A stretch of 64,000 nt of DNA, from positions 2,289-66,288 of the forward strand of contig CAZVLJ010000005.1 in NCBI GenBank assembly GCA_964627825.1. Reading direction: 5' to 3'. The first letter of the stretch is position 1. Every line of letters starts with the position of its first letter. The stretch is from an uncultured Rikenella sp. GTDB lineage: Bacteria; Bacteroidota; Bacteroidia; Bacteroidales; VadinHA17. Below are positions 16,113 to 40,162 of the stretch, one piece after another. Below the pieces are notes generated by a model that had not been told where the DNA came from, searched no databases, and worked only from the letters and a program-made list of their open reading frames with translations. Made by a program: the position numbers and the translations under genes.

Positions 16113-16134
16113 AACAATGTTATTTTATTAACAA
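16100..16134. promoter_or_regulatory. Two adjacent Rex-operator-like inverted repeats
   Basis: TTGTTATTTCAAAAACAA (16100..16117) and ATGTTATTTTATTAACAA (16117..16134), compared with the published Rex consensus TTGTTAA-N4-TTAACAA. Box 1 overlaps the predicted -33 element of hydCBA. rex is encoded in the same operon. Confidence 0.45.
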
Positions 16135-16219
16135 TTAACGACTGAAATTCTCAGTTCCCTGATGTAAGCGATTAAATTTATTGTACTTTTGAGATAGCAT
16201 GTAATAAAATATCAGATTC

Positions 16220-16465: not shown

Positions 16466-16488
16466 CATGATACACCAACGCATTGATT

Positions 16489-18366: not shown

Positions 18367-19564
18367 TCCTTCGGCAGCATTGGAGAAGCAGTTCTTCATA
18401 GAGGTGAACAGCCAGCAGCGCAACCACCATGGTGAGCGTATCTGCGGCGATGTCTTCCTGTCAGAGAACGTGCGGGAAGAAAACCGAATCATCACCGTGC
18501 TCTCTGACGGCATGGGACACGGAGTAAAAGCCAATATTCTGGCAACGCTCACATCCACCATGGCCCTCAATTTCACGAAGGAACACAAGGAGCCTGACCG
18601 CATTGCCGAGATTATCATGAATACCCTCCCGGTCTGTTCGGAGAGGAAGATCAGCTATGCCACCTTCTCCATTGTTGATATTGAGAGCGACGGCCGTGTC
18701 AATATACTGGAGTATGACAACCCGCGCTGCATTATCCTCAAGGGCAGCCAGCCCTTTGAGCCGGGATGGAAGGATGTGGTGCTTGACACAGGCAGAAATG
18801 CAGGCAAACGTCTTCACAAGTGCACTTTCTACCCCGCCAAGGAGGACCGCATTATCCTTCTTTCCGACGGTGTTGCACAGAGTGGCATGGGATCAGCAGC
18901 ATGGCCCCTGGGATGGGAACGTGACAATGTACTGCAGTACGCCATGTCACTTGTCGCAGGAGAGTCATCCATCTCTGCCGGATCACTTGCAGCGAAGATT
19001 GTCAACATGGCCTATAAATATGACAATTACGAGGCCAAGGATGATATCTCGTGCGCCATTCTTTACTTCCGCGAGCCACGCAAGCTGCTCCTCTGCTCAG
19101 GTCCGCCCTATGATGAGGAAAAGGATAAGGAGCTTGCCTCCATGGTTACGGACTACAACGGCAAGGTAATTCTCTGCGGCGGAACCACCGCTGATATTGT
19201 GGCACGAGAGCTGAACCGCAAAATAGTTGATGAGCTTATATTTGAGGATAACGACCTGCCCCCTGAAAGCTTCATGGAGGGAATAGACCTGGTCACCGAA
19301 GGTATACTTACACTGCAGAAGGTAAGTGAGCTGCTGAAGAGCTACAAAAGCAGCGTCAAGCTCGGTAAGGGTCCGGCTGACAAGATTGTCAGGATGATCA
19401 TGGAGAGTGACGAAATCAACTTTGTGGTGGGCACACGGATCAATGTGGCACACCAGGACCCCAGCCTGCCGGTTGATCTTGAGATACGACGGACAGTGGT
19501 GAAGCGCATAGCGCGCCTGCTGGAGGATAAGTGGCTTAAACAGGTAAGTATTGATTATATTTGA
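18350..19564 (+). CDS. PP2C/SpoIIE-family serine phosphatase with an extra C-terminal domain
   Basis: ICGDVF, VLSDGMGHGVKA and LLSDGVAQSG motifs. ATG 18350 (MNRENN...) overlaps the upstream stop by 17 nt; the track ORF starts at GTG 18284. Confidence 0.8.
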   Translation: MNRENNPSAALEKQFFIEVNSQQRNHHGERICGDVFLSENVREENRIITVLSDGMGHGVKANILATLTSTMALNFTKEHKEPDRIAEIIMNTLPVCSERKISYATFSIVDIESDGRVNILEYDNPRCIILKGSQPFEPGWKDVVLDTGRNAGKRLHKCTFYPAKEDRIILLSDGVAQSGMGSAAWPLGWERDNVLQYAMSLVAGESSISAGSLAAKIVNMAYKYDNYEAKDDISCAILYFREPRKLLLCSGPPYDEEKDKELASMVTDYNGKVILCGGTTADIVARELNRKIVDELIFEDNDLPPESFMEGIDLVTEGILTLQKVSELLKSYKSSVKLGKGPADKIVRMIMESDEINFVVGTRINVAHQDPSLPVDLEIRRTVVKRIARLLEDKWLKQVSIDYI

Positions 19565-25960: not shown

Positions 25961-26344
25961 TCAGAGCTCATCCACCTCAATTATTTCGAAAGGGACCTGG
26001 AGGATGGTCTTAAAATCCCTTCCTGCATCACGCATATTCTCATCACCCTTCTCACAATACCACCTGATAAGCACATCCCGGTCAGCCAGACTGATCCGTT
26101 CAAACCTCTTGAAAAGGGCATGTATCCTGTTTGATGAACTGGTATTGAAAAACTCGAACCTGACGCTCAGAACCGTCCTCTCGGCCGGCCTGGCACCATA
26201 TTTCTCAACATAGTGCAGCAACGGCGTATAAAAACTGTTTGAGTTCTCGGGTACGGATTTGCCCCTTATCTCAAACAGACCAAGTTCAGGATCAAACGAT
26301 ACTGACGGTGTCCTGGATGTTTGCTTGATCTCTATCTTTTCCAT
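25961..26344 (-). CDS. DUF1987 / SiaC-family protein (partner-switch phosphoprotein family)
   Basis: MEKIEIKQTSRTPSVSFDPELGLFEIRGKSVPENSNSFYTPLL...FEFFNTSSS...WYCEKGDENM matches my recollection of DUF1987. ATG 26344 preferred over the upstream start at 26398. Confidence 0.6.
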   Translation of the reverse strand: MEKIEIKQTSRTPSVSFDPELGLFEIRGKSVPENSNSFYTPLLHYVEKYGARPAERTVLSVRFEFFNTSSSNRIHALFKRFERISLADRDVLIRWYCEKGDENMRDAGRDFKTILQVPFEIIEVDEL

Positions 26345-26494
26345 ATGTATGAATACACAGCAAAGTATAAATGTATGGATTTCCTCCAATATAGGCAAAC
26401 TCGCAGTGAGATGTTGAAAAGTTACCGGGAAATTAACACTGCTTTATGCTACATTTGAAGACAACAGCTATTCATCATCAATCATTTACATTAA

Positions 26495-29215
26495 ATGATC
26501 AGACAGACCATGTGGATTAAACACCTATTAATCAGCATAATATATTTTCTCTGCCTGGTTCCGATACTCCTGGCGGAAGAGGTGAATATTACCGGGACAG
26601 TCACTGACGGAGGTGGCGTGCCGGTTATGAATGCGCAAGTCTCTTTCTTTCTGAATACCAAGGAGTTCAGAGCCATATCCGGCACTGACGGCCGATATTC
26701 ATTGAAGGTGACCGGTTACTACAGTGATGTAGCAGGGGAATTCAGTGCAGGCACTCCCTACCCCAATCCCTTTGACAACGGTGTGAACATTCCATTTATT
26801 ATCAACACGCCTGGTGACGTAATGCTTACCATATACAACCTTGCCGGCGTGAAGATGCGCATCATGGTCTTTCCCGATGTGGCTCCCGGAAGTTACAATG
26901 CCATCTGGGATGGCTGCGGGCAGAACAATTCCCCCCTTAATGCCGGTATGTACATCTACGCGCTCACCTTTAAGGGCAGATCCTATAGCGGGAGGCTGGT
27001 TAAGTCATCCACCAGCGGGTCGCTCTCCTCCGGCAGCGGGCTGGAGCCGGTGATGCTGCCTCCTGACGAACCCCTGCCTGCGCCATCGCTTCGTTTCCCG
27101 GTGACAGCCGAGGTAACAGCGGAGGGTTACTACCCCGTAAGACTGACCGATATCACCATTGCGCGCGACACAGTCATTGACTTCGCCCTTACCCGGAAAC
27201 ATTCCATGCCCTTCACAGTATCCGGCAACTACATTGCCCGCTACATTGATGGTGAATACAAGCCGATGGTACTCAAAGGAATCAACCTCGGATCGTCGCC
27301 TCCGGGATACTTCCCCGGCGAGATAGCCTATGCAATTAAGCCTGCCACTTATGAGAGATGGATCAGGCGGATAGCGGAAGCGGGATTCAATACGATAAGG
27401 GTTTACACACTCCATCCGCCTGTCTTCTATGAGAAGCTGGCCGAGTACAATCAGCGTCATCCAGAAAGGCCCCTGCTGCTTTTCCAGGGGATATGGCTGG
27501 AGGAGATAGAAGATGGCGCTGACCCATGGTGCTATGATCTCATCAACAGACGCCAGGCATTCACTGATGAGATCACTGAGGTCATCAACTGCATCAACGG
27601 TAATGCTGATATTGCATTCAGGTATGGCAAATCATACGGCATATACAGGACAGACGTTACTCAATGGACAGCAGGATACATAATAGGGCGAGAGGTGGCA
27701 CCGCAGGAGATAGACTCCACCAACAAATTCCATCCGGGCACCTCATCCTATTCAGGCACGCGTTTCAGCATCAGCGGAGGCAGCGCATCCGAAGCCTTCA
27801 TCACCGAGATGCTTGACCGGGTGGTTGTCATTGAAGAGTCAGCATATGAGGTCAGCAGGCCTGTCAGCTTCTCCAGCTGGCCTACGCTTGATCCGCTGGA
27901 ACATCCGACAGAGATATACACTGACGAGGATGTAGCCTCCTTTGATATAACCAAAATAAGCCGCAACGGTGGTCCGGGATTGTTTGCCAGTTACCATGCC
28001 TATCCATACTATCCGAATTTTATCAGCCAGGAACCTTCTTACCTTGGGTACAGTGACAGCCAGGGGCCAAACAGCTACCTCGGCTACCTTACAGCCATGA
28101 AGAGCCATTACTCATCGATGCCTCTGGTTATAGCCGAATTTGGTGTGCCCTCAAGCTGGGGCAGCGCCCACCAGTCGTACAGCTCAATGCACCACGGTGG
28201 CTACTCCGAGATCCAGCAGGGTGAGAAGAACATGAGGATGATGGATAACATGCTTGATGCCGGCTGTGCTGGCGGATTCATGTTCGCATGGATGGATGAG
28301 TGGTTCAAGCGCACATGGATCGTCCTTTACCAGGAGGCCTACGGGATCGGTTCCGGTGAAGCAACCATCCCAACACGCCAGCTGTGGCACAATGAGACAT
28401 CGCCGGAACAGTGCTTCGGCCTGCTTGCTTTTGATCAGAAGGATACTCCCTCATTCGTGCCTTACGATCTGGACCAGTCCGAAGGACCGGTAAGCTCGGT
28501 CACCGCCACACATGACGAAGGATTCCTCTATCTGGAGATAAACACTGAATCCGATCTCACTCCTGCCGATGAGTTCATGGTCGCGTTTGATACCTATCTG
28601 GCCGGAACAGGCGAATCAACCCTCCCCGGTGGAGCCACGGTAAACAACAGGGCCGAGTTCCTGCTCACATTCACCCTGGATGATGATACGGCGCTCCATC
28701 ATGTGACACAGGCTTATGACATGAATGCTCTTACCGTGCGGTTCAACCTCACGGACCCGGTGGTGCAGATGTTCAGGAGCACCATAACCGATGGAGATCC
28801 GTGGAAGGTGATGAGATGGACAAATGACGGATTTGAGCTGACCTGGCAGGATATCGGGAAGGTACCCCTTGAGCACTCTTCCGCCTTCACAGAGGGTAAC
28901 AGGGCGGCAGTGGCCTGGGACGGGAAGAAGATAAACATCAGGCTGCCCTGGACCATGCTCCATTTCTATGATCCCACTCAGATGACGGTCAACGACGGGG
29001 CGATCTCATATGACGGTGGCTATAACTTTGAGATAATCACAGGTGAATCTGACGGCATTGCTGTTTCTGTCTGGCATAACGGGACCGTTACAAACACAAC
29101 CAACAGGTACAGATGGCCGAAGTGGCTCATTGTTCCGCCCACCAAGGAACGGGAGAAGGCTTCGCTCCATATCATCGAAGAAGGTTTATCCGCCATACCT
29201 GATTTTACGGATTAA
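26495..29215 (+). CDS. Large secreted multidomain protein with a clan GH-A-like (TIM-barrel) glycoside hydrolase core
   Basis: Signal/anchor, CarboxypepD_reg-like segment (ITGTVTDGGGVPVMNAQV), internal FlgD/T9SS-like Ig segment (YPNPFDNG...LTIYNLAGV), then NTIRVYTLHP, IIGREV (candidate acid/base), VIAEFGVPS (candidate nucleophile) and FMFAWMDEWFKRTW. The GH family is not assignable by eye. Confidence 0.45.
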   Translation: MIRQTMWIKHLLISIIYFLCLVPILLAEEVNITGTVTDGGGVPVMNAQVSFFLNTKEFRAISGTDGRYSLKVTGYYSDVAGEFSAGTPYPNPFDNGVNIPFIINTPGDVMLTIYNLAGVKMRIMVFPDVAPGSYNAIWDGCGQNNSPLNAGMYIYALTFKGRSYSGRLVKSSTSGSLSSGSGLEPVMLPPDEPLPAPSLRFPVTAEVTAEGYYPVRLTDITIARDTVIDFALTRKHSMPFTVSGNYIARYIDGEYKPMVLKGINLGSSPPGYFPGEIAYAIKPATYERWIRRIAEAGFNTIRVYTLHPPVFYEKLAEYNQRHPERPLLLFQGIWLEEIEDGADPWCYDLINRRQAFTDEITEVINCINGNADIAFRYGKSYGIYRTDVTQWTAGYIIGREVAPQEIDSTNKFHPGTSSYSGTRFSISGGSASEAFITEMLDRVVVIEESAYEVSRPVSFSSWPTLDPLEHPTEIYTDEDVASFDITKISRNGGPGLFASYHAYPYYPNFISQEPSYLGYSDSQGPNSYLGYLTAMKSHYSSMPLVIAEFGVPSSWGSAHQSYSSMHHGGYSEIQQGEKNMRMMDNMLDAGCAGGFMFAWMDEWFKRTWIVLYQEAYGIGSGEATIPTRQLWHNETSPEQCFGLLAFDQKDTPSFVPYDLDQSEGPVSSVTATHDEGFLYLEINTESDLTPADEFMVAFDTYLAGTGESTLPGGATVNNRAEFLLTFTLDDDTALHHVTQAYDMNALTVRFNLTDPVVQMFRSTITDGDPWKVMRWTNDGFELTWQDIGKVPLEHSSAFTEGNRAAVAWDGKKINIRLPWTMLHFYDPTQMTVNDGAISYDGGYNFEIITGESDGIAVSVWHNGTVTNTTNRYRWPKWLIVPPTKEREKASLHIIEEGLSAIPDFTD

Positions 29216-29279
29216 AGAGGACTGAAGATTTACGATTGCCGAGTTAAGCGAAAATCGGAAATCAGAAATTAAAAATCTA

Positions 29280-30686
29280 TCAGGCTTTCTTCTTCTCATG
29301 GAACCCGCTTCTCTCCGCCTTGCCCCATCCTTTCTTGCCACGGAGCGACTCAAGGTTACCCCTGACGGCAAAATAGGTATGCACCGGGTAGAAGAAAGGC
29401 TCAAGCATTGTTGTGCCGATGAGCCTCAGCACATCACGTTTCCTGCGGTATTTATGGAATGTTATCTCCTCAAAGAGGACAGCCCAGGTTGTAAGGCTGA
29501 CAGCGAAGCTGTAGACAAAAAGGAACAGAAGCAGGAAGAAAGGCAGGTTGAGGGCGCCTGTTATGGCAAGATAGATAGTATAGATTATACCGAGGAATGC
29601 TATCAGGGGTGCTGCCCATTCAAACAAGAGCCAGTATGGGTAGCCCAGCATTCCCAGTTTTCCGTAGCGGGCGTTAAGCATCATCTTGCGGTGTGACCAG
29701 AGTGATTCTATGAGGCCACGGGTCCATCTTGTTCTCTGCTTGCGCATTGATTTGAGGTCAGAGGGCACCTCCGTCCAGCAGAGCGGATCAGGTATATAAG
29801 TAACCTCATAGTTCTCCTTGTGTTCGGCCATGTAGCGCCTCATTCTCAGCACCAGTTCCATGTCCTCTCCCACAGTCTTGACATTATATCCGCCGGCTTT
29901 TATAACCGTCTCGCGGTCAAACATGCCCATGGCACCCGAGATAAGCATCAGCCCGTCCAGATGGCTCCAGGCCATGCGTCCCAGCAGGAAGGCACGGGTG
30001 TAGTCAAGCACCTGCAACCTTGGGAGGAACTTTTTCGGCAGATTGATCTGGCGAATATGGCCGCGCTCAATATCGCATGAATTAACAATGCGAATAACCC
30101 CGCCTGTTCCAATTACCCTCTTCTCCTTCTCCTCAAGGAAGGGCTTGACCAGCTTGAGAATTGAATCAGGTTCAATGATTGAGTCGGCATCAATAGTCAC
30201 TATCAGGTTACTGCGGCTGATGTTGATACCTGCATTGAGAGAGTCAGCTTTGCCACCGTTATTCTTGTCAATGACGGTAAGCCGGTTGTATGCCGGGTCC
30301 TTGGAACGGTAAACGCCTCTTATCCTCTCGCAGGGGATGCGGTAATCAAAGTAATAGTTTACCCTGACAAGCTCATAGGCATTCCTGATCTTCTCAAAAG
30401 TGTCATCCGTTGAGCCATCATTGACAATGATAACTTCAAAGTTGTTGTAGTAGAGAGAGAGCAGGGTACGGACGTTATCTATTATGGTCTTCCCCTCGTT
30501 GAATGCAGGGGCAATAATTGTGATACGCGGACTCAGTGGCGAGAGGACGAGTGAGTTGTAGTTGACATAGCTGTTCTTGCGCAGGTACTTTCTCAGCGCA
30601 AGGGCCGAGTATATGCCTAGCAGCAGGTATGTCCCGAAGAGGACGAGGGTCAGGTAGAATATCAGATGTGCAAAGATAAATCCCAT
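29280..30686 (-). CDS. Processive family-2 glycosyltransferase (PgaC/IcaA/BcsA-like polysaccharide synthase)
   Basis: N-terminal TM helix, IIAPAFNE, VNDGSTD, GGKADSLNAG, TIDADS, GEDMEL and the processivity motif QRTRW (QxxRW), then 3-4 C-terminal TM helices. Confidence 0.8.
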   Translation of the reverse strand: MGFIFAHLIFYLTLVLFGTYLLLGIYSALALRKYLRKNSYVNYNSLVLSPLSPRITIIAPAFNEGKTIIDNVRTLLSLYYNNFEVIIVNDGSTDDTFEKIRNAYELVRVNYYFDYRIPCERIRGVYRSKDPAYNRLTVIDKNNGGKADSLNAGINISRSNLIVTIDADSIIEPDSILKLVKPFLEEKEKRVIGTGGVIRIVNSCDIERGHIRQINLPKKFLPRLQVLDYTRAFLLGRMAWSHLDGLMLISGAMGMFDRETVIKAGGYNVKTVGEDMELVLRMRRYMAEHKENYEVTYIPDPLCWTEVPSDLKSMRKQRTRWTRGLIESLWSHRKMMLNARYGKLGMLGYPYWLLFEWAAPLIAFLGIIYTIYLAITGALNLPFFLLLFLFVYSFAVSLTTWAVLFEEITFHKYRRKRDVLRLIGTTMLEPFFYPVHTYFAVRGNLESLRGKKGWGKAERSGFHEKKKA

Positions 30687-30691
30687 GGTAT

Positions 30692-32434
30692 TCAGTATAT
30701 CCTGCGGTCAAGCACATGCCTGACTATAATGTTATAATTCTTATACTCCGATTTCATCACCTTGACAAGAGCCTGTACACCTGTCTCACCCAGGTTTTCA
30801 ATGGCTTTCACTGACTCTATCTGGAGCTGCACGTCATCCTCCTTGTCAAGCACCAGCTTGAGAAAGCCGAGCATCGATGCATCCGGCATCTTGCCCATTG
30901 ACCTGACAATCTCGAGGCAGTTGTTGTACTCCTGGTACTTGTACATGCGTTTCATGGTATCCAGGGTGCTTCTCATGTCCATGTCACCAGCCACCTCCAC
31001 GGCCAGCTGGCTTACACGCTGATCGCGATGAAGCAATACCTTTTTAATCTCCGACTCAGCCTCTTTCTGTTTGAACTCCCTTATCATCCTCAGGGCGAAC
31101 ATCACCACGGTCGGATTTTCTGAAGAAAGCCACCTCTGAAATTCAGGCACAGGCAGATCATGCTGGATTATAAGATCATGCAGTGTGATCTGCTCCCACA
31201 AAGAGAATGGTCTCTTAAGGTGCGACAGGAATTCAAAGTGATCATGGTCGCTCAGGCGTACCAGTGCAATCTGGGCCTCCATCCTCAGGATCTCATTCCT
31301 GGAGTTCAGGCATCTGTAGATATCATCATTACCTTCCCTGATACCCATGAAGGCCAGCTCACGGAATCCCTTTATCTTCTTGTGCCACCGCCTGCTGCGG
31401 GCCCTGGCCAGTGAGTCATTGTCAAGTCCCAGTTCATTATAGAGCCTGGTGAGCTTTTCTCTCGAGTCACCCTTCAGGTTTACGCTGACGTCTATCATCT
31501 GGTCAATAAGCACCTGCCTGCGATAGTCACTTGAGGCAATCTTTTTGAACGACTCAGGACTGCTGTTGCCGAAGAGGTAATCAATTATCAGCGTCTGGTA
31601 CTGTTCAAGCAGATACTGCCGCAGCCTGGCCTCCCTCTCCATCCTTCTCCTGTTAAGGAGGATGACAAGCAGCAGTATAAGCATCGTAGCCAGCGAGGCA
31701 ATAATAGCAATTATAAGTGCATTTACCAGGGCAACCGATTTGCCGAAATAGTTGTACCGGGAGAGCCACGGACTGTCGCCCTTCAGGAGAAAGATATTCC
31801 TGAACCTTTCCCACCTTGTAGGCTCTCTTCCGTAAGTGATCTCAGTATCACCGTCAGATGCAACTGGTTCTTCCCCGGTGGCTGATTCATTCATGCCTTC
31901 TGTAACAGGCACTGTTTCGTTCGCCTGCCTGTCAGCAGATGATGGTATTGTATCCTGCACTGCCGTAACCTCAACCTGATATTGTGGTGTCAGTGCAGTC
32001 TCCGGCTGACCGGGTTCAGATGCTTCAGTCTCCTCTGCTGATACGGGTCTCTCTGTGTGATCAGCGGGGAATGATACCGGGACAAAGAGGCAGGCAGACT
32101 GATCTCTCAATGAGCTGTTTATAAATACCTTGAACAATCCATCCTCTTCCACCAGGTCAAGTGAGAGTCCGGTCATCTCTTCCACTCTTTTCCGGAGGGC
32201 TTCAGCATTGACATGCCTGCTGAAAGCGCCCATCTGGATGGCATATTCGCCGCCGGCCAGCGAGACCAGTCCGTCTACCGTCAGCTCGGCAGGAAAGGTT
32301 GACATGGCTGGCTGGGCTTTGTTGGTTTTATTCAGGGGTACTGAATCAGGTCCATTGTCACTGATACTTCCTGACAAAGACAGAGATGCACTCCCGACGG
32401 CAATGGTCAGTAATATGGTCAGGATGGCTTTCAT
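30692..32434 (-). CDS. Bitopic membrane protein: N-terminal SPOR-like domain, TM helix, C-terminal HEAT/ARM-like repeats
   Basis: Signal peptide, then YAIQMGAFSRHVNAEALRKRVEE...GLFKVFINS (SPOR-like). TM segment VALVNALIIAIIASLATMLILLLVILL, followed by NRRR and about 300 aa of helical repeats. A 4-nt overlap with the upstream gene and a 5-nt gap to the GT2. Confidence 0.5.
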   Translation of the reverse strand: MKAILTILLTIAVGSASLSLSGSISDNGPDSVPLNKTNKAQPAMSTFPAELTVDGLVSLAGGEYAIQMGAFSRHVNAEALRKRVEEMTGLSLDLVEEDGLFKVFINSSLRDQSACLFVPVSFPADHTERPVSAEETEASEPGQPETALTPQYQVEVTAVQDTIPSSADRQANETVPVTEGMNESATGEEPVASDGDTEITYGREPTRWERFRNIFLLKGDSPWLSRYNYFGKSVALVNALIIAIIASLATMLILLLVILLNRRRMEREARLRQYLLEQYQTLIIDYLFGNSSPESFKKIASSDYRRQVLIDQMIDVSVNLKGDSREKLTRLYNELGLDNDSLARARSRRWHKKIKGFRELAFMGIREGNDDIYRCLNSRNEILRMEAQIALVRLSDHDHFEFLSHLKRPFSLWEQITLHDLIIQHDLPVPEFQRWLSSENPTVVMFALRMIREFKQKEAESEIKKVLLHRDQRVSQLAVEVAGDMDMRSTLDTMKRMYKYQEYNNCLEIVRSMGKMPDASMLGFLKLVLDKEDDVQLQIESVKAIENLGETGVQALVKVMKSEYKNYNIIVRHVLDRRIY

Positions 32435-33522
32435 TCTGCTTTACCTATACCCATAATTAATCCAATATTGCCCTCAAACCTGTTACGATATGACGAGGGG
32501 TCATATTTCTCATAGGAATATCCGGCTCCGATCCTGAATGACCAGCGGGAGTTTATCTGGTTGAAGTATGTGAGTCTGACGCTCGAGGCCTTCTGGCGCT
32601 CCAGGTCCGTGATAATATCATAGGGTTCGTCAGGGGCCGTTCCCGTACCAAGGGTCAGCTGAAGGTAATCAGTGATATCGAAATACCTCCTTGCCGTAAT
32701 GAAGAACGATGTTGTGACACCGATATCCTTGAAATGGAAATACCCCCTTGCTGAGAACCAGTAGTTGCCCAGGTATTTTTCCACCGAGGCTGTTCCCAGG
32801 AAAATATGCTCCTCAAAATAATAATAGTTGATGCCTGCTGACAATGCCCAGCCGGGAGGGAGTGACTGCCACAGCTCGAAGGCTGCCCTGTGCCGGGGAA
32901 ACCATGAACCGGGACTGTAGGCATAGGCCAGGTAGGCATAGTTATGGCTGCCGAACTCTGGCCATGCTTCCATGGCAAACTGAACATCATTGTCGGCCAG
33001 TGGGGAGGGCTCTCCTATATTAATATGTCCATAGTTGACCATTGCCACCGCGGTGCCCCAGCCAAAGCGGTGTCCCGCACCCAGGCTGAAGACCTGCCAG
33101 AGACGTTCGTAAGGCTCGTTGAATGTGTCAAACATGTATCCGGCCCTTATATCGGCAGGAAGTGTGAACTGCTGTGAACGGTCACGCATCCATCTCCTGA
33201 TATCAGTCACTGCCTCCAGGGCATCGCTGTTTCCGGGATCAGTCATCAGCAGGGTGTCTATTACTGCTGCCCCTTCCTCATAACGACCCTGCCATGCAAT
33301 GATTCTTCCGAGAAGTACCCTGGCATCTCCGTAGTCCGGGAACTGGTCTACCAGCAGGCGGGCAGCAGGTTCTGCCTCACCATACCTGCCTTCGAAAGCC
33401 AGAGTGCGTATCCTCGCATACTCCTCCTCCGGATTGGTAATGGTCTGGGCAGACAGCAGGCCCGTGGTCATGAACATCATGACCAGTGAAATTATTATGG
33501 CTCTATATTTCCAGTGCCCCAT
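32431..33522 (-). CDS. TPR + YaiO-family outer-membrane beta-barrel protein
   Basis: Signal peptide and N-terminal TPR-like helices (YGEAEPAARLLVDQFPDYGDARVLLGRIIAWQGRYEEG). Then alternating aromatic/Gly beta-strand pattern ending in ...GNIGLIMGIGKAE. YaiO assignment is by recall. Confidence 0.55.
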   Translation of the reverse strand: MGHWKYRAIIISLVMMFMTTGLLSAQTITNPEEEYARIRTLAFEGRYGEAEPAARLLVDQFPDYGDARVLLGRIIAWQGRYEEGAAVIDTLLMTDPGNSDALEAVTDIRRWMRDRSQQFTLPADIRAGYMFDTFNEPYERLWQVFSLGAGHRFGWGTAVAMVNYGHINIGEPSPLADNDVQFAMEAWPEFGSHNYAYLAYAYSPGSWFPRHRAAFELWQSLPPGWALSAGINYYYFEEHIFLGTASVEKYLGNYWFSARGYFHFKDIGVTTSFFITARRYFDITDYLQLTLGTGTAPDEPYDIITDLERQKASSVRLTYFNQINSRWSFRIGAGYSYEKYDPSSYRNRFEGNIGLIMGIGKAE

Positions 33523-33526
33523 ATTA

Positions 33527-33889
33527 TCATATAACTGCTACGGCCGCCCTGATCTTAGTGAGAAGATCATCCGGATCAAAGGGTTTGGTCAGATAACCGC
33601 TCACCTTCATCTCGGCAGCCTGACGCTGCATCTGAGGATCACTGAAGGCAGAGACGATGAGAACAGGTGTCTGCCTTTTCAGCTCGGTGCGCAGAAATCT
33701 TATTACCTCCAGTCCGCTGTGGTACGGCATGTGAATATCTATTATTGCAAGGTCAAAATCAGTTTTCCTGAGCGCTTCAATAGCCTTGTTCCCATCACAT
33801 ACCGTTACAGGATCATATCCCTCACGATCAAGCACTACAGACATAGCTCTTGAAGCCAGCTGGTTATCTTCACAAATAAGTATCTTCAT
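33527..33889 (-). CDS. Single-domain response regulator (REC only)
   Basis: 120 aa. ILICEDN, acceptor context AIIDIHMP, SAF and TKPF motifs. First gene of the four-gene operon. Confidence 0.85.
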   Translation of the reverse strand: MKILICEDNQLASRAMSVVLDREGYDPVTVCDGNKAIEALRKTDFDLAIIDIHMPYHSGLEVIRFLRTELKRQTPVLIVSAFSDPQMQRQAAEMKVSGYLTKPFDPDDLLTKIRAAVAVI

Positions 33890-34057
33890 CTTCTGAACAA
33901 TTCTTTCCGCCCGTTCTAATAACGCTATAATCTGACCTTTATTAGATCAGAACGTCAAAAATGACGCTTTTGTATGACGCTCTCCAAAAATGCAGTTTTA
34001 ATTTTGACTTCCGTACAAAAACTGATGATCATCTGCCTTCAGTGCATGACAAACAGA

Positions 34058-37000
34058 TCATAGTTCCTTAATCCTGATGTTTCTGAATTTTACTACAGAT
34101 CCATGACCCAGGAACCCGATATATCCTTTGCTGTTCTTCAGTCCCGGGTGATCTTTCCCGTCAATGGTTCCGTTCAGGGCAGCGTCTGCGATGTCACCGT
34201 TGACAATAACAGTCCCGTTAAGCACAACCTTCACCTTCGTCCCCTTTACGGTCACCTCCTGGTAGTTCCACTCTCCCACGGGACGGAGGAATCCCCTGCG
34301 TGCAGGAATGACACCATATACTGAGCCGTGATACTGGTATGGCGCCAGTTCGGCATAGACAGAAGCCGTATTGTCAAGTATCTGCAGCTCCATGCCCACG
34401 TATGCGGCATCACCCTCTGTGGGGGTCCTTATCCCCAGGCCGTTGTTGGCCCCGGGAGTAAGCTGGAACTCAAAGCGGAAGATAAAGTCAGCATACTCTC
34501 TCTCAGTATAGAGGTTACCACCGCTGTCATTGCCCGGTTTGATAACAATCATTCCATCTTCGGCCGTATATGACACTTTGTTGCCAATCCATCCGTCGAG
34601 GTTTCTGCCGTTGAAAAGTGAGGTGAAGCCCTCCTCCTTCTCCTTCTCCGTCAGGCTGTATTCCGGGCTCTTGATTTCCCTTATCCAGATATCCCTGAAG
34701 GCAAGGTCAGTACCGTGAGCCTGCAACTCAACCGGGCCGGTGGGGAAGATAGGGATGCTCCTGTCCCAGTAGTTTTCCATAATGACATTGTCAACAGTCA
34801 GTTCGCCGTTAAGCCAGACTGACACTCTCTCACCGGTCATGATGATACGGAAGGTATTCCATTCACCGATGGGATTATCTGCCACGGTAAGGGGCACGGA
34901 GGGATTTTTCTGATTGTTATAGAGTCCTCCAGATCCCACCTCTGCTCCGTCATCGGTGCGCGAGGTGTCCCATATCTGTACCTGCGGGGTTCCACGGAGA
35001 TAGATTCCGCTGTCACCATCCCTTGTAATGCGCCAGTCAACATACATCTCAAAATCACCATACTCTTTTACACTGCAGAGATTATCACCCCGTCCGCTGA
35101 ACCATATCATCCCATCCCTGACGCTCCAGTTCTCAAGCATCCTGATATTGGCTTCCTTCTGCCTGGCGGCCAGCTCCCCGGGCTTCATCTTAGCCCTGGT
35201 GAGAGGGTTTCCTGCCAGTCCCTGCCAACCTTCAAGGTCCTTTCCGTTGAACATCGGTTCGAACAATTCATCAGCAGGGAGATTCATTGATTCAATTGCC
35301 TCTGATGCTGCCCTGCTGACATCTTCGGAAGGATCAGAGAGATAGGGCATGATAAAGAAGTGTGCCTGTCGGATGCCCAGTGAGGCCGCAAGGGCCAGCA
35401 TTCCCGATCTGGCGTCCGGAGCAGCGGCATAACGGGATATATCCTTTATCATCAGGAGCTTGTGCTCCGGTGTCACCGGTGCAGCCGCCACCATTCTCAT
35501 ATAGGCATCAAATGCCGGCATGCCAAATGTTTTATTTCCCGATGCCGCTATCTCCATCAGCACTCCGGCTGCCGAGTGATCTTTCCAGTGCGCCAGTGCA
35601 TCAAAGCATATATCACGTGTGGCGGCATCTCCGTTATCGAAATCATGTGCAACCTTTTTGAGGGCCTCATCTCCTCCTGTTACTGCCAGCATAGGTATCA
35701 GCTTTGCCTTCTCTGCGCCCTTGTCCAGGGCTTGAAGAATAAGGTACGATCTGCGTTCAGGGTCATCGTGACGCATAGCTGCACCAAGGAGTGCCTGCTG
35801 CAGCTGGGTTACTTCAGCCCTGTCAGTTGCAGTACCAAGCAGTTTAATGATTGCCGGTTGGTCATTCCATGAACCCAGTGAAGAAAGAGAGGTGAGGGCT
35901 GCTGCCCTTATTGCCAGGTCATCCGAGGTGGTATAAGGAAGCACTGTTTTAAAATAATGTGTATCACCTGACCATGCCAGAAGTCTGATCAGGGTAACCG
36001 TAGCCTGGCCTGATGACTCCGGCAGCCTGTCAGCCACCATCCTGATGCTAGTGCTGTCAAGGATTGTTGTCAGGGCACTGGCAGCCGCACGGTGGCCCTC
36101 CTCACTGTCATACTTCACTATCCATGAAAGGAGCGGCTCTACGGCTTTACGACCCTGCAGTCTGGCCAGGGCAGTGAGGGCCGAGGATGACACCTCGCGG
36201 GAAGGATCATCCAGAGCCTTCATCATCAGCGGAACAGCCAGCTCATCACCCCGCTCGCCAAGCATGAAAAGTATGTCTGCCTTCGCTTCGGGAGCGACCT
36301 TTCCATATCTGTTGATCCATTTTTTTGTAGCATCGCTTCCCTTAATTGCTGATGCCAGGCGCAGTGCGCCCACCCTTATAGCCACATCCGTATCACCGGC
36401 AGCCTGAAGGAGCATGCCAAGAGCATCACTACCCTTCACCTCCGCGATAACGCTCATTGCTGCCAGCCGCTGGCTGGAAGCCTCAGGTGCCTGGCTGACG
36501 TCCATGACCAGGCTGGCTATGCGTTCCATCTTTTTCACCTCTCCTGCGAGTCCAATGTTGCGGGCATATAGGAGCAGGGCACGTACAGCATCGGTCTGGT
36601 CCCTGCGATATGATGCTGCAGCGGCAGCCCCGGTGAGGATCTCTGCAGCCCCGGGTGCCCCCGTGGAAGCAAGGGCATACAGGGCAGCTGATTTTTCGGC
36701 TGTGTTGCCCTTATTATACCACAAGAGGTAAGGCTCAACTGTTGTTCCCGGAAATGTCTCTGCCAGAGAAATCATGATCTGAGCAGCGCACGGGCACTCA
36801 TCGGCCCTGAGAGCAGAGGTAAGGGCTTCTGCGGCGGAGGCAGTTCCAACAGACTGAAGGGCAATGACGGCATCATCACACATTTCGGGAGAGGTAGTCC
36901 ATTCCTTCAGTGCCTCTGCAGCGGCTTCGGAGCCAATCAGGTTAAGCTGTCGCATAAAGAATGACCTCACCTCCCTGTCAATGGCAGATTGCATATACTT

Positions 37001-37324
37001 TATGCACTGCTTCTCCCATGCGCCTCTGCGTGAATCGTCGGAGCCGGCAGAGAGATGAGCGGTCAGGGTGGCGACGGCATATCGGGCGCTGAGATCGTCA
37101 CCGGTACCGGCAGGGACCACCTTCTGACAGATCATGTCTCTGCCCTCTTCTCCAAGCAGGTACATATCCTCCATTAACCGGGAGGCCAGCTCCTGGTTGT
37201 CAGCCGGCATGCGTGCGAGCAGGTCAGCTACCTTCGTGCTGAGGGTCCTGACATCCTGGGCTCCCGTAACTGCACTGATAAGCAACAGCATTGCTGCTGC
37301 AAAAAGAGTTTTGATTCTGTTCAT
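34058..37324 (-). CDS. Secreted HEAT-repeat protein with two C-terminal DUF1080 (3-keto-disaccharide hydrolase-like) domains
   Basis: Signal peptide MNRIKTLFAAAMLLLISAVTGAQD (ATG 37324), then about 700 aa of Ala/Leu-rich helical repeats. Then two copies of the DUF1080 pattern: FNGKDLEGWQG...WSVRDGMI...YGDFEMYVDW...DSGIYLRG...IWD and FNGRNLDGWIG...YTAEDGMI...YADFIFRFEF...NNGLGIR...LQILDN...GYIGFLGHGS.VKFRNIRIKEL. Confidence 0.65.
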   Translation of the reverse strand: MNRIKTLFAAAMLLLISAVTGAQDVRTLSTKVADLLARMPADNQELASRLMEDMYLLGEEGRDMICQKVVPAGTGDDLSARYAVATLTAHLSAGSDDSRRGAWEKQCIKYMQSAIDREVRSFFMRQLNLIGSEAAAEALKEWTTSPEMCDDAVIALQSVGTASAAEALTSALRADECPCAAQIMISLAETFPGTTVEPYLLWYNKGNTAEKSAALYALASTGAPGAAEILTGAAAAASYRRDQTDAVRALLLYARNIGLAGEVKKMERIASLVMDVSQAPEASSQRLAAMSVIAEVKGSDALGMLLQAAGDTDVAIRVGALRLASAIKGSDATKKWINRYGKVAPEAKADILFMLGERGDELAVPLMMKALDDPSREVSSSALTALARLQGRKAVEPLLSWIVKYDSEEGHRAAASALTTILDSTSIRMVADRLPESSGQATVTLIRLLAWSGDTHYFKTVLPYTTSDDLAIRAAALTSLSSLGSWNDQPAIIKLLGTATDRAEVTQLQQALLGAAMRHDDPERRSYLILQALDKGAEKAKLIPMLAVTGGDEALKKVAHDFDNGDAATRDICFDALAHWKDHSAAGVLMEIAASGNKTFGMPAFDAYMRMVAAAPVTPEHKLLMIKDISRYAAAPDARSGMLALAASLGIRQAHFFIMPYLSDPSEDVSRAASEAIESMNLPADELFEPMFNGKDLEGWQGLAGNPLTRAKMKPGELAARQKEANIRMLENWSVRDGMIWFSGRGDNLCSVKEYGDFEMYVDWRITRDGDSGIYLRGTPQVQIWDTSRTDDGAEVGSGGLYNNQKNPSVPLTVADNPIGEWNTFRIIMTGERVSVWLNGELTVDNVIMENYWDRSIPIFPTGPVELQAHGTDLAFRDIWIREIKSPEYSLTEKEKEEGFTSLFNGRNLDGWIGNKVSYTAEDGMIVIKPGNDSGGNLYTEREYADFIFRFEFQLTPGANNGLGIRTPTEGDAAYVGMELQILDNTASVYAELAPYQYHGSVYGVIPARRGFLRPVGEWNYQEVTVKGTKVKVVLNGTVIVNGDIADAALNGTIDGKDHPGLKNSKGYIGFLGHGSVVKFRNIRIKEL

Positions 37325-37343
37325 GATATCTTTTTCTTGTGTT

Positions 37344-38612
37344 TTACATATGCCATTCACCTCTCATGGGCTGCTCTATTAATGCATTGGCTGCATCATC
37401 ACCTGTAAAGAGCTGTTTCACGGGGTCAAATTTAAGGTTCCTGCCCAGCCGCAGAGCCACCACACCCATATTCACAATGGTACACGATCTGTGTCCGTTC
37501 TGCTCGTTGAGGGCGAAGGGGCGACGTGTCTTCACCGATTCGGTGAAACGGGTGATCTGAGGCTCAGGGTCGGGAAGATCCCTTACCAGCTCCTGGAGAT
37601 TGGGTATGTCTGAGACAAAGCCCTTATATATCCTCCCGAGAGGTCCTTCGATATAAGCAGCATCACTGTCACGGTTTTCGCCATCAAGAATGATCTGGCA
37701 CCCGTCCTCATAGGTATATGTGATCCTTCGCCATGAGCCCACGGCATCATAGTGCTGCTGCGGAGCGTCAATCTCCACGGAGACGGGGCTGGTGTCATCC
37801 TTTCCCAGCAGGTACTGAACAGGATCAATATAGTGTTGCCCCATATCTCCCAATCCTCCCCCGTCATAGTCCCAGTATCCCCTGAAGTTCTCGTGTACGC
37901 GCATCTTATTGTAAGGCTTGAACGGTGCAGGTCCCAGCCACATATCATAATCAAGTTCAGCCGGTACCGGTTCGGGAACGAGATCGGTCCGTCCGCTCCA
38001 GTAGAACTTCCAGTCATATCCGGTGATTCCGCTGATGGTTACCTTCAGGGGCCATCCCAGCACCCCGCTGCTGACAACCTTTTTAAGAGGCATGACGGTA
38101 GTACCCAGGCCGTAGAACTGGCCTGTAAACCGGAACCAGGTGTTGAGCCTGAATATCCTGCCGTTGGCCCTGACGGCCTCCACCAGTCTCTTGCCCTCAC
38201 CAATGGTACGAGTCATTGGTTTCTCGCACCATATGTCCTTGCCGGCCTCAGCAGCCATCCGCGCAATGATCCCGTGCCAGTGAGGCGGAGTGGCTATGTG
38301 TACAATGTCTATGTCAGGCCTGCTGATGAGTTCGCGGAAATCATGATATCCAACCACTCCTTTCCCGGCTTTATCAAGCGCTCTTTTCAGGTGCCTTGAA
38401 TCAACATCACAGACAGCCAGAAGGCGGGTATTCTCATAATTGAAATGGCCAAGTCCCATTCCTCCCACTCCAACAATTCCCTTTGTGAGCTTGTCGCTGG
38501 GAGCAAGATAACCGCTGCCGCCAAGCACGTGCCTGGGAACAATGGTGATGGCGGTACCGGCCACTGCTCCCCTCCTTATAAATTCTCTTCTCTTTATTGG
38601 ATTCAATGACAT
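37344..38612 (-). CDS. Tat-exported Gfo/Idh/MocA-family oxidoreductase
   Basis: Twin-arginine signal KRREFIRRGAVAGTAITIV. Rossmann start GIVGVGGMG and ATPPHWH, followed by a typical C-terminal alpha/beta domain. Confidence 0.8.
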   Translation of the reverse strand: MSLNPIKRREFIRRGAVAGTAITIVPRHVLGGSGYLAPSDKLTKGIVGVGGMGLGHFNYENTRLLAVCDVDSRHLKRALDKAGKGVVGYHDFRELISRPDIDIVHIATPPHWHGIIARMAAEAGKDIWCEKPMTRTIGEGKRLVEAVRANGRIFRLNTWFRFTGQFYGLGTTVMPLKKVVSSGVLGWPLKVTISGITGYDWKFYWSGRTDLVPEPVPAELDYDMWLGPAPFKPYNKMRVHENFRGYWDYDGGGLGDMGQHYIDPVQYLLGKDDTSPVSVEIDAPQQHYDAVGSWRRITYTYEDGCQIILDGENRDSDAAYIEGPLGRIYKGFVSDIPNLQELVRDLPDPEPQITRFTESVKTRRPFALNEQNGHRSCTIVNMGVVALRLGRNLKFDPVKQLFTGDDAANALIEQPMRGEWHM

Positions 38613-38623
38613 AATTTTATGTT

Positions 38624-40162
38624 TTAGTCTTCAGGAACGCTATACTCTTTTCTCAGAGCAGCAAGTTTCTTTCTGAGTTTCTGCTCCACCCGGTCATATG
38701 CCGGATCATCTATCAAGTTATTCATCTCATGCGGATCAGAGGTGATGTCATACAGTTCCCACTGGTCAATGTCATTATAGAAATGAATCAGCTTGTACCT
38801 GTCAGTACGAATTCCATAATGTCTTCTTACTGCATGTTCGGCCGGGTACTCATAATAGTGATAATAAAGTGCATCACGCCATTTTTTGGGTTTTTCTCCC
38901 CTGAGCAGCGGTACAAGTGAGACACCCTGCATCTCTTCAGGAGGCTTCACCCCTGCCAGTTCCAGGAATGTTGGAGCGTAATCAATATTCTGTACCATTT
39001 CGGTTATATCTCCATGGGCAGAGAGCGACTCCGGCAGCCGCATCATCAAGGGAGTACGGAAAGATTCTTCGTACATGAAGCGCTTGTCAAACCAGCCATG
39101 CTCACCCAGGTAGAAGCCCTGGTCAGAGGTGTAGACCACGAGGGTATTTTCAAGCAGGCCGGACTGCTCAAGGTAATCAAGCAGCCTGCCCGTATTGCGG
39201 TCAACAGACTCGATGGTCCTGAGGTAGTCAGTGAGGTACCTGTTCAGCTTGAATAGTGCCAGCTCATCACCCTGAGGCGGATTTGTCCTGTAGGCTTCAC
39301 TGATGCTGTCATACTCCTTCAGCCATGCCTCGCGTTGCTCCGGGGTCATGCGACGGTTGAGGTACCACAGATAGTCCTGCTCTGTTTTGGTCAGGGAGTC
39401 GCCCTGAGCGCTGGTGATCTTGAGGTCATAGGACATGCGCATATCCTTTATGACGCTCATCTCCTGGAGACCGGCGGCGGCTCTGCCCTCATATGTGTCA
39501 AAGAAGTTATCCGGGACGGGGAATTCTGTGCCGTCAAAGAGATCGAGGTCACAGGTTTCAGGCATCCAGTTGCGATGGGGAGCCTTGTGGTGCACCATCA
39601 GGCAGAAAGGCTTTGTGGTATCACGTTGCTCCAGCCACCCGATGGCCTTATCGGTTATGATTGTGGTGGCGTATCCCGTCTGCCTGTAAGTGCGATCCAT
39701 CTCAACAAAGTCAGGGTTATAATAGCTGCCCTGACCGGGAACGATACTCCAGTAGTCAAAGCCTGTTGGTTCACTCTTGAGGTGCCATTTGCCGATGAGA
39801 GCGGTCTGGTATCCTGCCTCACGGAGCAGCTTGGGGAAGGTCACCTGGGAGCTGTCAAACCGGGCACGGTTGTCCCTGTGGCCGTTGGCATGGCTGTGCT
39901 TGCCGGTGAGCAGCGCCGCCCTGCTGGGAGCACATATGGAGTTGCATACAAAACTGTTGCGGAATATGATCCCCTCGTCCGCAATGCGGTCGAGATTCGG
40001 GGTTTTATTTATCTGGCTTCCATAGGCGCTGACAGCCTGGTAGGCATGATCATCCGTCATGATGTAGACGATGTTCAGTTTCTGTGGTTCCGGCTCAGGT
40101 CCTGAGCAACCCAGGATCATGAGGGGCAGCAGAATTGCGGAGAGTCCTTTCACTTTTTTCAT
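38624..40162 (-). CDS. Formylglycine-dependent sulfatase (lipoprotein)
   Basis: Lipobox LMILGCSG. MTDDH, then the CxPSR signature in SICAPSRAALLTGK, and GKWHL. Confidence 0.85.
   Translation of the reverse strand: MKKVKGLSAILLPLMILGCSGPEPEPQKLNIVYIMTDDHAYQAVSAYGSQINKTPNLDRIADEGIIFRNSFVCNSICAPSRAALLTGKHSHANGHRDNRARFDSSQVTFPKLLREAGYQTALIGKWHLKSEPTGFDYWSIVPGQGSYYNPDFVEMDRTYRQTGYATTIITDKAIGWLEQRDTTKPFCLMVHHKAPHRNWMPETCDLDLFDGTEFPVPDNFFDTYEGRAAAGLQEMSVIKDMRMSYDLKITSAQGDSLTKTEQDYLWYLNRRMTPEQREAWLKEYDSISEAYRTNPPQGDELALFKLNRYLTDYLRTIESVDRNTGRLLDYLEQSGLLENTLVVYTSDQGFYLGEHGWFDKRFMYEESFRTPLMMRLPESLSAHGDITEMVQNIDYAPTFLELAGVKPPEEMQGVSLVPLLRGEKPKKWRDALYYHYYEYPAEHAVRRHYGIRTDRYKLIHFYNDIDQWELYDITSDPHEMNNLIDDPAYDRVEQKLRKKLAALRKEYSVPED

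Follow-up and report, generated by a model that had tools for sequence, protein, structure and literature searches.

The stretch of DNA analysed here, called the window in the following, comprises 64,000 nucleotides from an uncultured Rikenella sp. (GTDB lineage Bacteroidota; Bacteroidia; Bacteroidales; VadinHA17; assembly GCA_964627825.1, contig CAZVLJ010000005.1, positions 2,289 to 66,288). Its central part carries a cassette of four genes on the minus strand and a long open reading frame convergent to them (Table 1). In the direction of transcription the cassette encodes a stand-alone receiver (REC), a protein with tetratricopeptide repeats (TPR) and a YaiO-family beta-barrel, a bitopic protein with a SPOR domain, one transmembrane helix and a HEAT-like domain, and a membrane glycosyltransferase of family 2 (GT2). 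The genes are closely packed. The REC and TPR/YaiO genes are 4 nt apart, the TPR/YaiO gene overlaps the following gene by the 4 nt ATGA, and 5 nt separate the latter from the GT2 gene. The convergent gene codes for a protein of 906 amino acids (aa) which is predicted to be a secreted glycosidase. Both the reading frames and the spacing are as an earlier sequence-only reading of this DNA had claimed, namely four close-packed minus-strand genes and a convergent gene at a distance of 64 nt. We consider it likely that the cassette is a self-contained machine of the synthase-dependent type for the synthesis and export of a glycan, specific to the Bacteroidota in appearance and apparently switched by a phosphorelay.

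Table 1. Genes, domains and sites of the cassette, its surroundings and selected other loci. Positions are those of the window, except where a locus number (L) is given. HMM, hidden Markov model; AF2, AlphaFold2.
Feature	Position	Strand	Basis or remark
Stand-alone receiver (REC), 120 aa	33527..33889	-	PF00072, E = 3e-26, no output domain
REC phospho-acceptor Asp51	33737..33739	-
TPR/YaiO barrel protein with signal peptide, 363 aa	32431..33522	-	PF19413, TIGR04390, TPR_19
N-terminal TPRs	~33187..33435	-
YaiO-family C-terminal beta-barrel region	~32443..33162	-
Bitopic SPOR/transmembrane/HEAT-like protein, 580 aa	30692..32434	-	HEAT_2, SPOR profile, hydropathy
SPOR domain	~32105..32278	-	family profile; low-complexity linker after it
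Transmembrane helix, residues 240-258	~31649..31729	-	hydropathy; NRRR after the helix
Conserved cytoplasmic HEAT-like domain, ~320 aa	30695..31648	-	HEAT_2, alignment
PgaC-like membrane GT2, 468 aa	29280..30686	-	PF00535, PF13641, PF13632
GT2 motif NDGSTDD		-	residues 89-95
GT2 motif DAD	30183..30191	-	residues 166-168
GT2 motif GED	29862..29870	-	residues 273-275
GT2 motif QRTRW	29724..29738	-	residues 317-321
Convergent spacer between GT2 and 906-aa genes, 64 nt	29216..29279	.	stop-to-stop distance
906-aa signal-peptide protein, GH-A-like core (predicted)	26495..29215	+	AF2 and Foldseek
N-terminal beta-sandwich domains (predicted)	26576..27214	+	AF2
Internal TIGR04183 match, residues 89-170	26759..27004	+	HMM
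Clan GH-A-like TIM barrel (predicted)	~27242..28444	+	AF2/Foldseek
Candidate acid/base Glu400	27692..27694	+	invariant, position on model
Candidate nucleophile Glu548	28136..28138	+	invariant, position on model
C-terminal beta domain (predicted)	28445..29212	+	AF2
Intergenic region upstream of REC gene, 168 nt; likely promoter/operator region	33890..34057	-	direct reading
Palindrome CGTCATTTTTGACG	33953..33966
SiaC-family (DUF1987) regulatory phosphoprotein	25961..26398	-	PF09345, E = 1e-33
HEAT + two DUF1080 protein, GFO/IDH/MocA oxidoreductase, sulfatase	34058..40162	-
Rex-like repressor	7718..8353	-
REC-HisKA-HATPase protein	8350..9498	-
[FeFe]-hydrogenase-like domain fused to HisKA/HATPase	9941..11905	-
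HydABC-type bifurcating hydrogenase genes	11918..16050	-
Second sensory hydrogenase-like protein	16483..18366	+
SpoIIE/PP2C phosphatase	18284..19564	+
~385-aa family gene, L069	6663..7808
~385-aa family gene, L065	5196..6356
~385-aa family gene, L081	11406..12569
~385-aa family gene, L086	11408..12592
CotH-family kinase gene, L081	7415..8785
DUF5916 + CBM9-like gene, L052	3984..6656
yaiO-yaiX-yaiP-yaiS of E. coli K-12 (L006)	380069..384616

The gene order is conserved across genomes. We scanned one genome per GTDB species with an alignment of the GT2 protein and found at least 580 genomes which encode this GT2 subfamily. The best 80 genomes are all metagenome-assembled genomes (MAGs) of Bacteroidota, assigned to the Bacteroidales, 'Rikenellaceae', Paludibacteraceae, Marinilabiliaceae and bins labelled Flavobacteriales. 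By BLASTP the REC, YaiO and HEAT genes are located upstream of the GT2 gene and on the same strand in 64 of the 69 loci with enough flanking sequence, and tblastn rescues three further loci with the four-gene set. In one locus (L079) the REC and YaiO genes have swapped places. The order of the four genes is kept down to 54% identity of the GT2 protein and in unrelated neighbourhoods; the clustering is thus not a matter of chance.

The gene of the 906-aa protein behaves differently. It lies convergent and directly behind the GT2 gene in 47 of 73 loci, is frameshifted or fragmentary in two more, and is found upstream in L061. From the other 23 loci, all with a GT2 identity of 79% or less, it is absent, and there the GT2 gene is followed by genes for MiaA, DNA polymerase III subunits, KDPG aldolase, ClpB or a FGGY kinase. 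Since these are unrelated housekeeping genes, the cassette ends at the GT2 gene and is a discrete unit. The proposal that the hydrolase is part of the system therefore holds for the clade of the window and has to be given up for the system as a whole, in which only one clade has it as an accessory. A 911-aa gene located upstream in L085 and L086 was considered as a displaced hydrolase; it codes for pyruvate phosphate dikinase. Genes for the synthesis of sugar nucleotides are absent from the cassette, as they are from the systems for poly-N-acetylglucosamine (PNAG) and cellulose.

The putative synthase matches PF00535, PF13641 and PF13632 with E-values of 1e-19 to 1e-22 and, weakly, Chitin_synth_2. 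Its four motifs align with those of E. coli PgaC, BcsA and NfrB and are invariant in 15 homologues, so that the pattern of processive GT2 enzymes, that is, D, DxD, (T/G)ED and Q(Q/R)xRW, is complete in the window protein. In the hydropathy plot a single hydrophobic segment appears at the N-terminus and a hydrophobic block in the C-terminal part, at about residues 353-391. When a profile was searched against the sequences of the PDB, the region 249-402 with the QRTRW motif and the hydrophobic helices matched only BcsA, and the N-terminal Rossmann half matched many generic GT2 structures. The best match among the NCBIfam models is PgaC_IcaA (TIGR03937) with 134.1 bits, followed by the XrtG-associated glycosyltransferase (119 bits), NodC (50 bits) and the cellulose synthase CelA (37 bits). 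The non-processive or lipid-linked families (ArnC-type with 24 bits, WcaA, AglJ and similar ones) reach 17 to 31 bits. The membrane GT2 with DxD, ED and QRTRW motifs of the sequence-only reading is thus recovered and can be aligned to known synthases, and the kinship to non-processive families that would have spoken against a synthase is not what the scores indicate (134 bits for PgaC/IcaA against 24 for the ArnC type).

The identity to E. coli PgaC is 25.6% over 356 aa (BLASTP, E = 1e-26). Among four membrane GT2 proteins of E. coli, PgaC is the closest relative, followed by YaiP (similar in the GT-A domain only), BcsA and NfrB, the last being not significant. Relative to PgaC there are two insertions, at about residues 104-135 and 195-215. 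The pipelines of the Joint Genome Institute (JGI) label the homologues 'PgaC'. However, the equivalog cut-off of this family is 422.3 bits and the score is far below it; therefore the protein appears synthase-like but should not be named PgaC. The GT2 is very highly conserved, with 80-96% identity in the 120 best database matches. From motifs and hydrophobic helices we infer that it would act processively and would provide a channel for the chain.

In the 580-aa protein the C-terminal half matches HEAT_2 (E = 2.4e-9). The SPOR domain scores below the cut-off in the window copy (17.0 against 21 bits, E = 0.0075); most close homologues carry PF05036, and a family profile built from 24 sequences matches the SPOR structure of CwlC (1x60) with E = 6.8e-5. 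Apart from CwlC, the profile retrieved from the PDB only designed alpha-Rep proteins, and these weakly; neither this protein nor the 906-aa protein has a match in PHROGs. Taken together with the hydropathy, these data support a topology with a signal peptide, a periplasmic SPOR domain and linker, one transmembrane helix and a cytoplasmic HEAT-like domain. Across the clades only the transmembrane helix and the cytoplasmic domain are conserved, and strongly so, the latter with the signatures WH...KGFRELA.M, ILRMEAQ.ALV.L, LWEQ and VLDKE.DVQLQIE..KAI. The periplasmic part varies: the clade of the window has one SPOR domain there and L085 and L086 have two, L065 and L069 carry a TPR-like segment instead, and in L079 and L081 almost nothing is left. 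The conserved function must therefore be sought in the membrane and the cytoplasm, beside the catalytic domain of the synthase and the receiver. The SPOR domain would be an optional anchoring or glycan-binding module outside this core. Of the earlier description, the transmembrane helix and the HEAT-like domain stand, and so, by way of homologues and profile, does probably the SPOR domain; the SPOR domain as a conserved part of the system does not. We propose that the HEAT-like protein would serve as co-synthase and regulatory receptor.

The barrel protein passes the cut-offs of both YaiO models by a wide margin (PF19413, 125.8 bits against 23.9, E = 2.3e-36; TIGR04390, 106.5 bits against 32, E = 1.9e-30), as do the proteins of L079, L081 and L085, and has a match to TPR_19 (E = 4.7e-8). 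Gene callers place the start 15 codons downstream, which results in a protein of 348 aa. We prefer the form with 363 aa because only the longer one includes the signal peptide, which is visible as a hydrophobic segment at residues 8-26. HMMs and hydropathy thus agree with the signal-peptide protein with TPR-like helices and a YaiO-like barrel that had been described from the sequence. We propose that this protein is the putative outer-membrane exporter of the glycan.

In nearly all loci the cassette begins with the REC gene. Its product is clearly a receiver (92 bits to Response_reg, PF00072) and, as supposed earlier, is confined to this domain, with no output domain found in Pfam. The residues D8, D51, S/T80, Y/F99 and K102-P103 are kept in 66 to 70 of 70 operon-linked homologues, and the phospho-acceptor residues are intact in all 70. 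In 17 divergent loci the gene directly upstream encodes a histidine phosphotransfer (Hpt) protein, a REC-Hpt protein or a hybrid kinase. Stand-alone Hpt proteins are found in L065, L066, L068-L072 and L077, REC-Hpt proteins in L085 and L086, and hybrid kinases of the type PAS-HisKA-(HATPase)-REC-Hpt in L075, L076, L078 and L081-L083. This is the arrangement to be expected if the receiver is the end point of a phosphorelay, and it supports control of the cassette by phosphotransfer. None of the five proteins has, at E ≤ 0.01 with Pfam and NCBIfam, a domain for the second messenger cyclic di-GMP (c-di-GMP), that is, a PilZ, GGDEF, EAL, GIL, MshEN or PelD-like domain. The absence of PilZ, GGDEF and EAL signatures is hereby confirmed, and the suggestion that control may run through the REC protein gains weight from the Hpt and hybrid-kinase genes of the divergent clades. 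An early census of the four Bacteroidetes genomes sequenced at that time counted many histidine kinases and zero diguanylate cyclases (PMC1183210). These data, which are old and come from genomes other than that of the window, fit a switch independent of c-di-GMP.

Neither a Pfam or NCBIfam model nor, even at E ≤ 1, a PDB sequence matches the core of the 906-aa protein; HMM matches are confined to the N-terminal 170 residues and are sub-threshold or domain-level hits to beta-sandwich domains. An AF2 model based on 30 homologues (predicted local distance difference test, pLDDT, 67; predicted template modelling score, pTM, 0.68) displays an alternating beta/alpha core at about residues 260-600. 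The top 50 PDB matches listed by Foldseek are all TIM-barrel enzymes of clan GH-A, from glycoside hydrolase (GH) families 2 and 157 (E = 4e-12 to 1e-9, probability 1.0), the GH2 enzymes being glucuronidases, galactosidases and mannosidases. Invariant residues are located on the model strands 2 (R302), 4 (R399-E400), 6 (H501 and Y503), 7 (E548 within VIAEFG) and 8 (W599); E400 follows directly upon the strand 392-399 and E548 is within the strand 544-549. These positions on the model correspond to those of the conserved residues in clan GH-A. The assignment to a hydrolase of clan GH-A, made earlier from the sequence, is therefore tenable at the level of the predicted fold, without support from HMMs or PDB sequences. 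In public records the protein is called 'T9SS type A sorting domain-containing protein', which is misleading. The match to the sorting domain of the type IX secretion system (T9SS; TIGR04183) is not at the C-terminus, and from its internal position it cannot serve as a secretion signal of the C-terminal kind.

An exhaustive profile search returned 633 clusters of this family at E < 1e-30, with a conserved unit at about residues 235-905. When 41 distant members were compared with Pfam, none had a model over the core, nine had TPRs and two a T9SS sorting domain, which is at the true C-terminus in P0370. A polysaccharide deacetylase domain of carbohydrate esterase family 4 (CE4) is present in six of the 41; in the four that were mapped (P0412, P0415, P0432 and P0460) it is C-terminal to the core. 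Hydrolase followed by deacetylase is the order in PelA, and PgaB combines a deacetylase and a hydrolase. The fusions with CE4 thus tie the family to the processing of exopolysaccharides, and by analogy its substrates are probably acetylated amino-sugar polymers. For the window protein itself we propose the role of a polymer-specific glycosidase.

Further genes recur near the cassette in some clades. A family of about 385 aa with no match in Pfam or NCBIfam is found in divergent clades, upstream of the cassette in L065, L066 and L069 and convergent downstream of it in L081-L083 and L086. Its members were considered as shortened versions of the 906-aa protein and rejected as such (hhalign probability 0.3%). 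In L081-L083, two of whose MAGs are labelled Flavobacteriales and one Bacteroidota, a gene for a CotH-family kinase (PF08757, E = 2e-61) is inserted between the YaiO and HEAT genes; such a kinase could modify the polymer or one of the partner proteins. Throughout a clade of middle distance (L052 and about 24 further loci among L018-L067), the REC gene is preceded immediately and on the same strand by the gene of an 890-aa protein with DUF5916 and a domain like carbohydrate-binding module 9 (CBM9). It may be another clade-specific accessory.

How does the cassette compare with known systems? With the Pga and Ica systems it shares a GT2 of the PgaC/IcaA type with similar size and placement of the hydrophobic segments, and the small operon that lacks sugar-nucleotide genes; as in Pga, there is an outer-membrane protein with TPRs and a beta-barrel, and a small membrane partner is encoded beside the synthase. 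However, the barrel is of the YaiO family and PGA_TPR_OMP reaches only 14.8 bits, on the TPRs. The partner has one transmembrane helix and a HEAT-like domain of about 320 aa, whereas E. coli PgaD is a protein of 137 aa. None of the five window proteins has a CE4 deacetylase domain (Polysacc_deac_1), PgaB and PgaD are missing and, as far as can be read from the genes, the REC protein takes the place of c-di-GMP control.

The systems for cellulose and Nfr are similar in other respects. The Bcs system has the same QxxRW logic of the synthase, and BcsA is the only solved structure which matches the C-terminal half of the GT2. It also combines a bitopic partner facing the periplasm, an exporter with TPRs and barrel, and a co-encoded periplasmic glycosidase. 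In contrast to Bcs, a PilZ domain is absent from the window proteins, and the barrel belongs to another family. The partner, whose conserved domain is cytoplasmic, bears no relation to BcsB. The hydrolase is GH-A-like, whereas BcsZ, annotated as endo-1,4-glucanase, is classified as GH8. The E. coli proteins NfrA, NfrB and YbcH form an exopolysaccharide system in which c-di-GMP is reported to activate NfrB (PMC8669469). Nfr, too, consists of a membrane GT2 and an outer-membrane protein with TPRs and barrel; having been recognised only recently, it sets a precedent for modules of this kind that are still overlooked. Nevertheless, the window GT2 has no significant similarity to NfrB, nor has the barrel protein to NfrA beyond the TPRs, and no c-di-GMP-related domain was found in the window proteins.

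The only locus with a YaiO-family protein in our comparison is yaiO-yaiX-yaiP-yaiS of E. coli K-12. There, too, the gene of a YaiO barrel has those of a membrane GT2 (YaiP) and of a deacetylase (YaiS) as neighbours; YaiO barrels thus recur beside membrane glycosyltransferases. The differences are clear: E. coli YaiO has no TPR region, and neither a REC nor a HEAT gene is present. Orthology was rejected, as BLASTP finds no similarity for the barrel and 28% identity for YaiP in the GT-A domain only. Since YaiP lacks the QxxRW motif common to PgaC, BcsA, NfrB and the window GT2, the yaiO locus may not be a processive synthase system despite the common barrel family. In the literature retrieved, yaiO is a PCR marker or is mentioned incidentally.

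As for the hydrolase, the 906-aa protein resembles PelA, PgaB, PslG and BcsZ in being a candidate TIM-barrel protein with a signal peptide encoded beside a synthase, and its distant relatives with C-terminal CE4 domain have the PelA order. Yet its sequence is not similar to that of the hydrolase domain in E. coli PgaB, the window copy has no deacetylase domain, and its candidate acid/base motif is Arg-Glu in place of Asn-Glu. A full-text literature search, which misses most papers in subscription journals, yielded no description of the cassette, and a large operon survey of synthase-dependent systems does not mention the Bacteroidetes (PMC7112194). As judged from its sequence, the cassette would work like Pga, Bcs and Nfr and belongs to none of them. 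It is unusual in the family of its putative exporter, in the co-subunit and in its probable control by a phosphorelay.

The earlier proposal of a synthase-dependent-type module built from different parts is supported by the synteny, the closeness to PgaC/IcaA, the linkage with Hpt genes and the fusions of the hydrolase family with CE4 and TPRs, and we suggest that it could operate as follows. The PgaC-like GT2 would polymerise a beta-linked polymer from a housekeeping UDP-sugar and thread it across the inner membrane; GT2 enzymes invert UDP-alpha-sugars. The transmembrane helix and the HEAT-like domain would stand in for PgaD, a PilZ domain or BcsB, both as the partner that the synthase requires and as the receptor for its regulation. 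In the periplasm the TPRs and the YaiO barrel would take over the chain and pass it through the outer membrane. The REC protein, once phosphorylated via the Hpt or hybrid-kinase relay, could bind to the HEAT-like domain or to the synthase and thus act as a post-translational gate in place of c-di-GMP. The SPOR domain could tie the inner-membrane partner to the glycan strands of peptidoglycan or to the nascent chain. In the clade of the window, the convergently encoded GH-A-like glycosidase could trim or release the polymer in the periplasm, like BcsZ, PslG and the hydrolase domains of PgaB and PelA. We lean slightly towards a polymer rich in N-acetylhexosamine (HexNAc), because the nearest relatives of the synthase make polymers or oligomers of N-acetylglucosamine (GlcNAc), relatives of the hydrolase are fused to deacetylases, and strands of GlcNAc and N-acetylmuramic acid are the ligands of SPOR domains. 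The identity of the polymer, its export by the YaiO barrel and the specificity of the hydrolase are predictions throughout.

Several observations weigh against this reading. The match of the GT2 to PgaC_IcaA, although its best, amounts to less than a third of the cut-off, and an AF2 model of the GT2 (15 sequences, all at least 79% identical) has a pLDDT of 39.6, too low for a channel to be read from it. The barrel, with about 14 amphipathic strands as roughly estimated from an alignment of 63 sequences, would be smaller than those of PgaA, BcsC and AlgE, which have 16 to 18 strands. The YaiO family is not known to act in transport: none of the papers listed in the full-text search reports a function for YaiO, and PF19413 and TIGR04390 gave no papers. 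The YaiO gene is truly missing from the cassette in two loci (L066 and L069). For the hydrolase, the Foldseek TM-scores are low (0.2-0.4) with a model of moderate quality, and the residue before the candidate acid/base is Arg399 where clan GH-A usually has Asn-Glu. No Hpt or kinase gene adjoins the operon in the window or in its close relatives. The kinases of the window (8350..11905) were considered as cognate donors and rejected: they are about 23 kb away, sit in the hydrogenase/Rex cluster and have no Hpt domain, and because of this location and the missing Hpt domain no kinase link can be claimed for the window. The contact between REC and the HEAT-like domain is one that we purely infer. 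Finally, every carrier genome among the loci inspected is a MAG.

We considered other explanations for the same genes. A divergent orthologue of pgaABCD or icaADBC which makes poly-beta-1,6-GlcNAc in the ordinary way would account for PgaC_IcaA as best NCBIfam match, for PgaC as the best of the four E. coli membrane GT2s, for the JGI name and for the CE4 domains of the hydrolase relatives. With 134 instead of 422 bits, 25.6% identity, two insertions, a YaiO-type barrel and neither a PgaB-type deacetylase nor PgaD in the cassette, we regard this as quite unlikely. Still less probable, in our view, is a non-processive GT2 of the GtrB, ArnC or DPM-like kind with a lipid carrier or a protein as acceptor, in a cluster modifying lipopolysaccharide or a surface protein. 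Such an enzyme would agree with the many non-processive structures matched by the Rossmann half and with YaiP, the GT2 beside E. coli yaiO, which has no QxxRW. The window protein, however, has both QRTRW and GED, which are invariant motifs; of the PDB entries only BcsA can be aligned with its C-terminal region, and the ArnC-type, WcaA-type and similar families reach 17-24 bits against 134 for PgaC/IcaA.

The product could also be an envelope or septum glycan, capsule-like, periplasmic or linked to peptidoglycan, with the SPOR domain directing the system to division sites and YaiO employed otherwise. The SPOR domain of the window clade and the two in L085 and L086 would suit this, as would the strong conservation of the GT2, which is appropriate for a housekeeping envelope function, and the finding that no adhesin or matrix genes lie near the cassette. 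We hold this for improbable since the SPOR domain is missing in many clades which keep the rest of the cassette, and the gene for TPRs and barrel, a hallmark of outer-membrane export, is nearly always located between the REC and HEAT genes. A chance vicinity of the five genes, or common transcription without a joint function, is hardly credible. The 906-aa gene is indeed convergent, not co-transcribed and often absent; but the four-gene order and strand persist in differing contexts down to the most divergent GT2 proteins mentioned above, and in 47 loci the 906-aa gene has kept its place beside the cassette although the remaining neighbours all differ. We therefore favour the synthase-dependent-type machine.

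The surroundings of the cassette are different in most genomes. The SiaC-like gene, a gene for a Gate-domain nucleoside-recognition membrane protein and the group upstream of the cassette, which consists of a 1100-aa protein with HEAT repeats and two DUF1080 (3-keto-disaccharide hydrolase) domains, a GFO/IDH/MocA oxidoreductase and a sulfatase, are common to the closest relatives only. For this reason the upstream group is probably a separate glycan-catabolic unit. The SiaC-family protein, whose gene adjoins the 906-aa gene, may be the partner of the SpoIIE-type phosphatase encoded at a distance of 7 kb and not of the glycan cassette. This phosphatase ends a region (7718..19564) which appears to be a hydrogen-sensing regulatory neighbourhood. 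Contigs identical to the window contig derive from biogas-fermenter and related metagenomes. The 168 nt upstream of the REC gene contain, besides the palindrome, two copies of the direct repeat AGCGTCAT; CGTCATTTTTGACG and these repeats may be an operator or the terminator of the upstream gene. A scan for sigma-70 promoters and terminators, which is uninformative for Bacteroidota, reported no terminator-like hairpin in the 64-nt spacer.

Synthase-dependent systems, that is, those for cellulose, PNAG, alginate, Pel and lately Nfr, have been defined mostly in Proteobacteria and a few Firmicutes, and most of them are gated by c-di-GMP. If our reading is correct, it would add a system that is widespread in the Bacteroidota, with its GT2 subfamily in at least 580 species genomes, many of them from anaerobic digesters, sediments and soils. 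It would provide a testable function for the YaiO barrel family including a y-gene of E. coli, and would flag a large enzyme family without Pfam model (633 clusters) as likely exopolysaccharide-processing glycosidases. It would also point to phosphorelay control of a polysaccharide synthase via a HEAT-like receptor domain. More speculatively, and with rather less confidence than we place in the cassette as such, one may take all parts together: a phylum largely devoid of c-di-GMP would possess its own synthase-dependent system, in which the phosphorylated REC protein docks on the HEAT-like domain of a single-pass co-synthase and so switches on the PgaC-like polymerase, YaiO barrels, E. coli YaiO among them, would be a hitherto overlooked class of porins for the export of polysaccharides, and the 906-aa protein would represent a new glycoside hydrolase family for exopolysaccharides which elsewhere is fused to CE4. 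Such docking, if true, would be a new principle of post-translational control for synthase-dependent machines. The cassette would finally bear on the formation of granules and biofilms in biogas and wastewater reactors, the habitat of its carriers.

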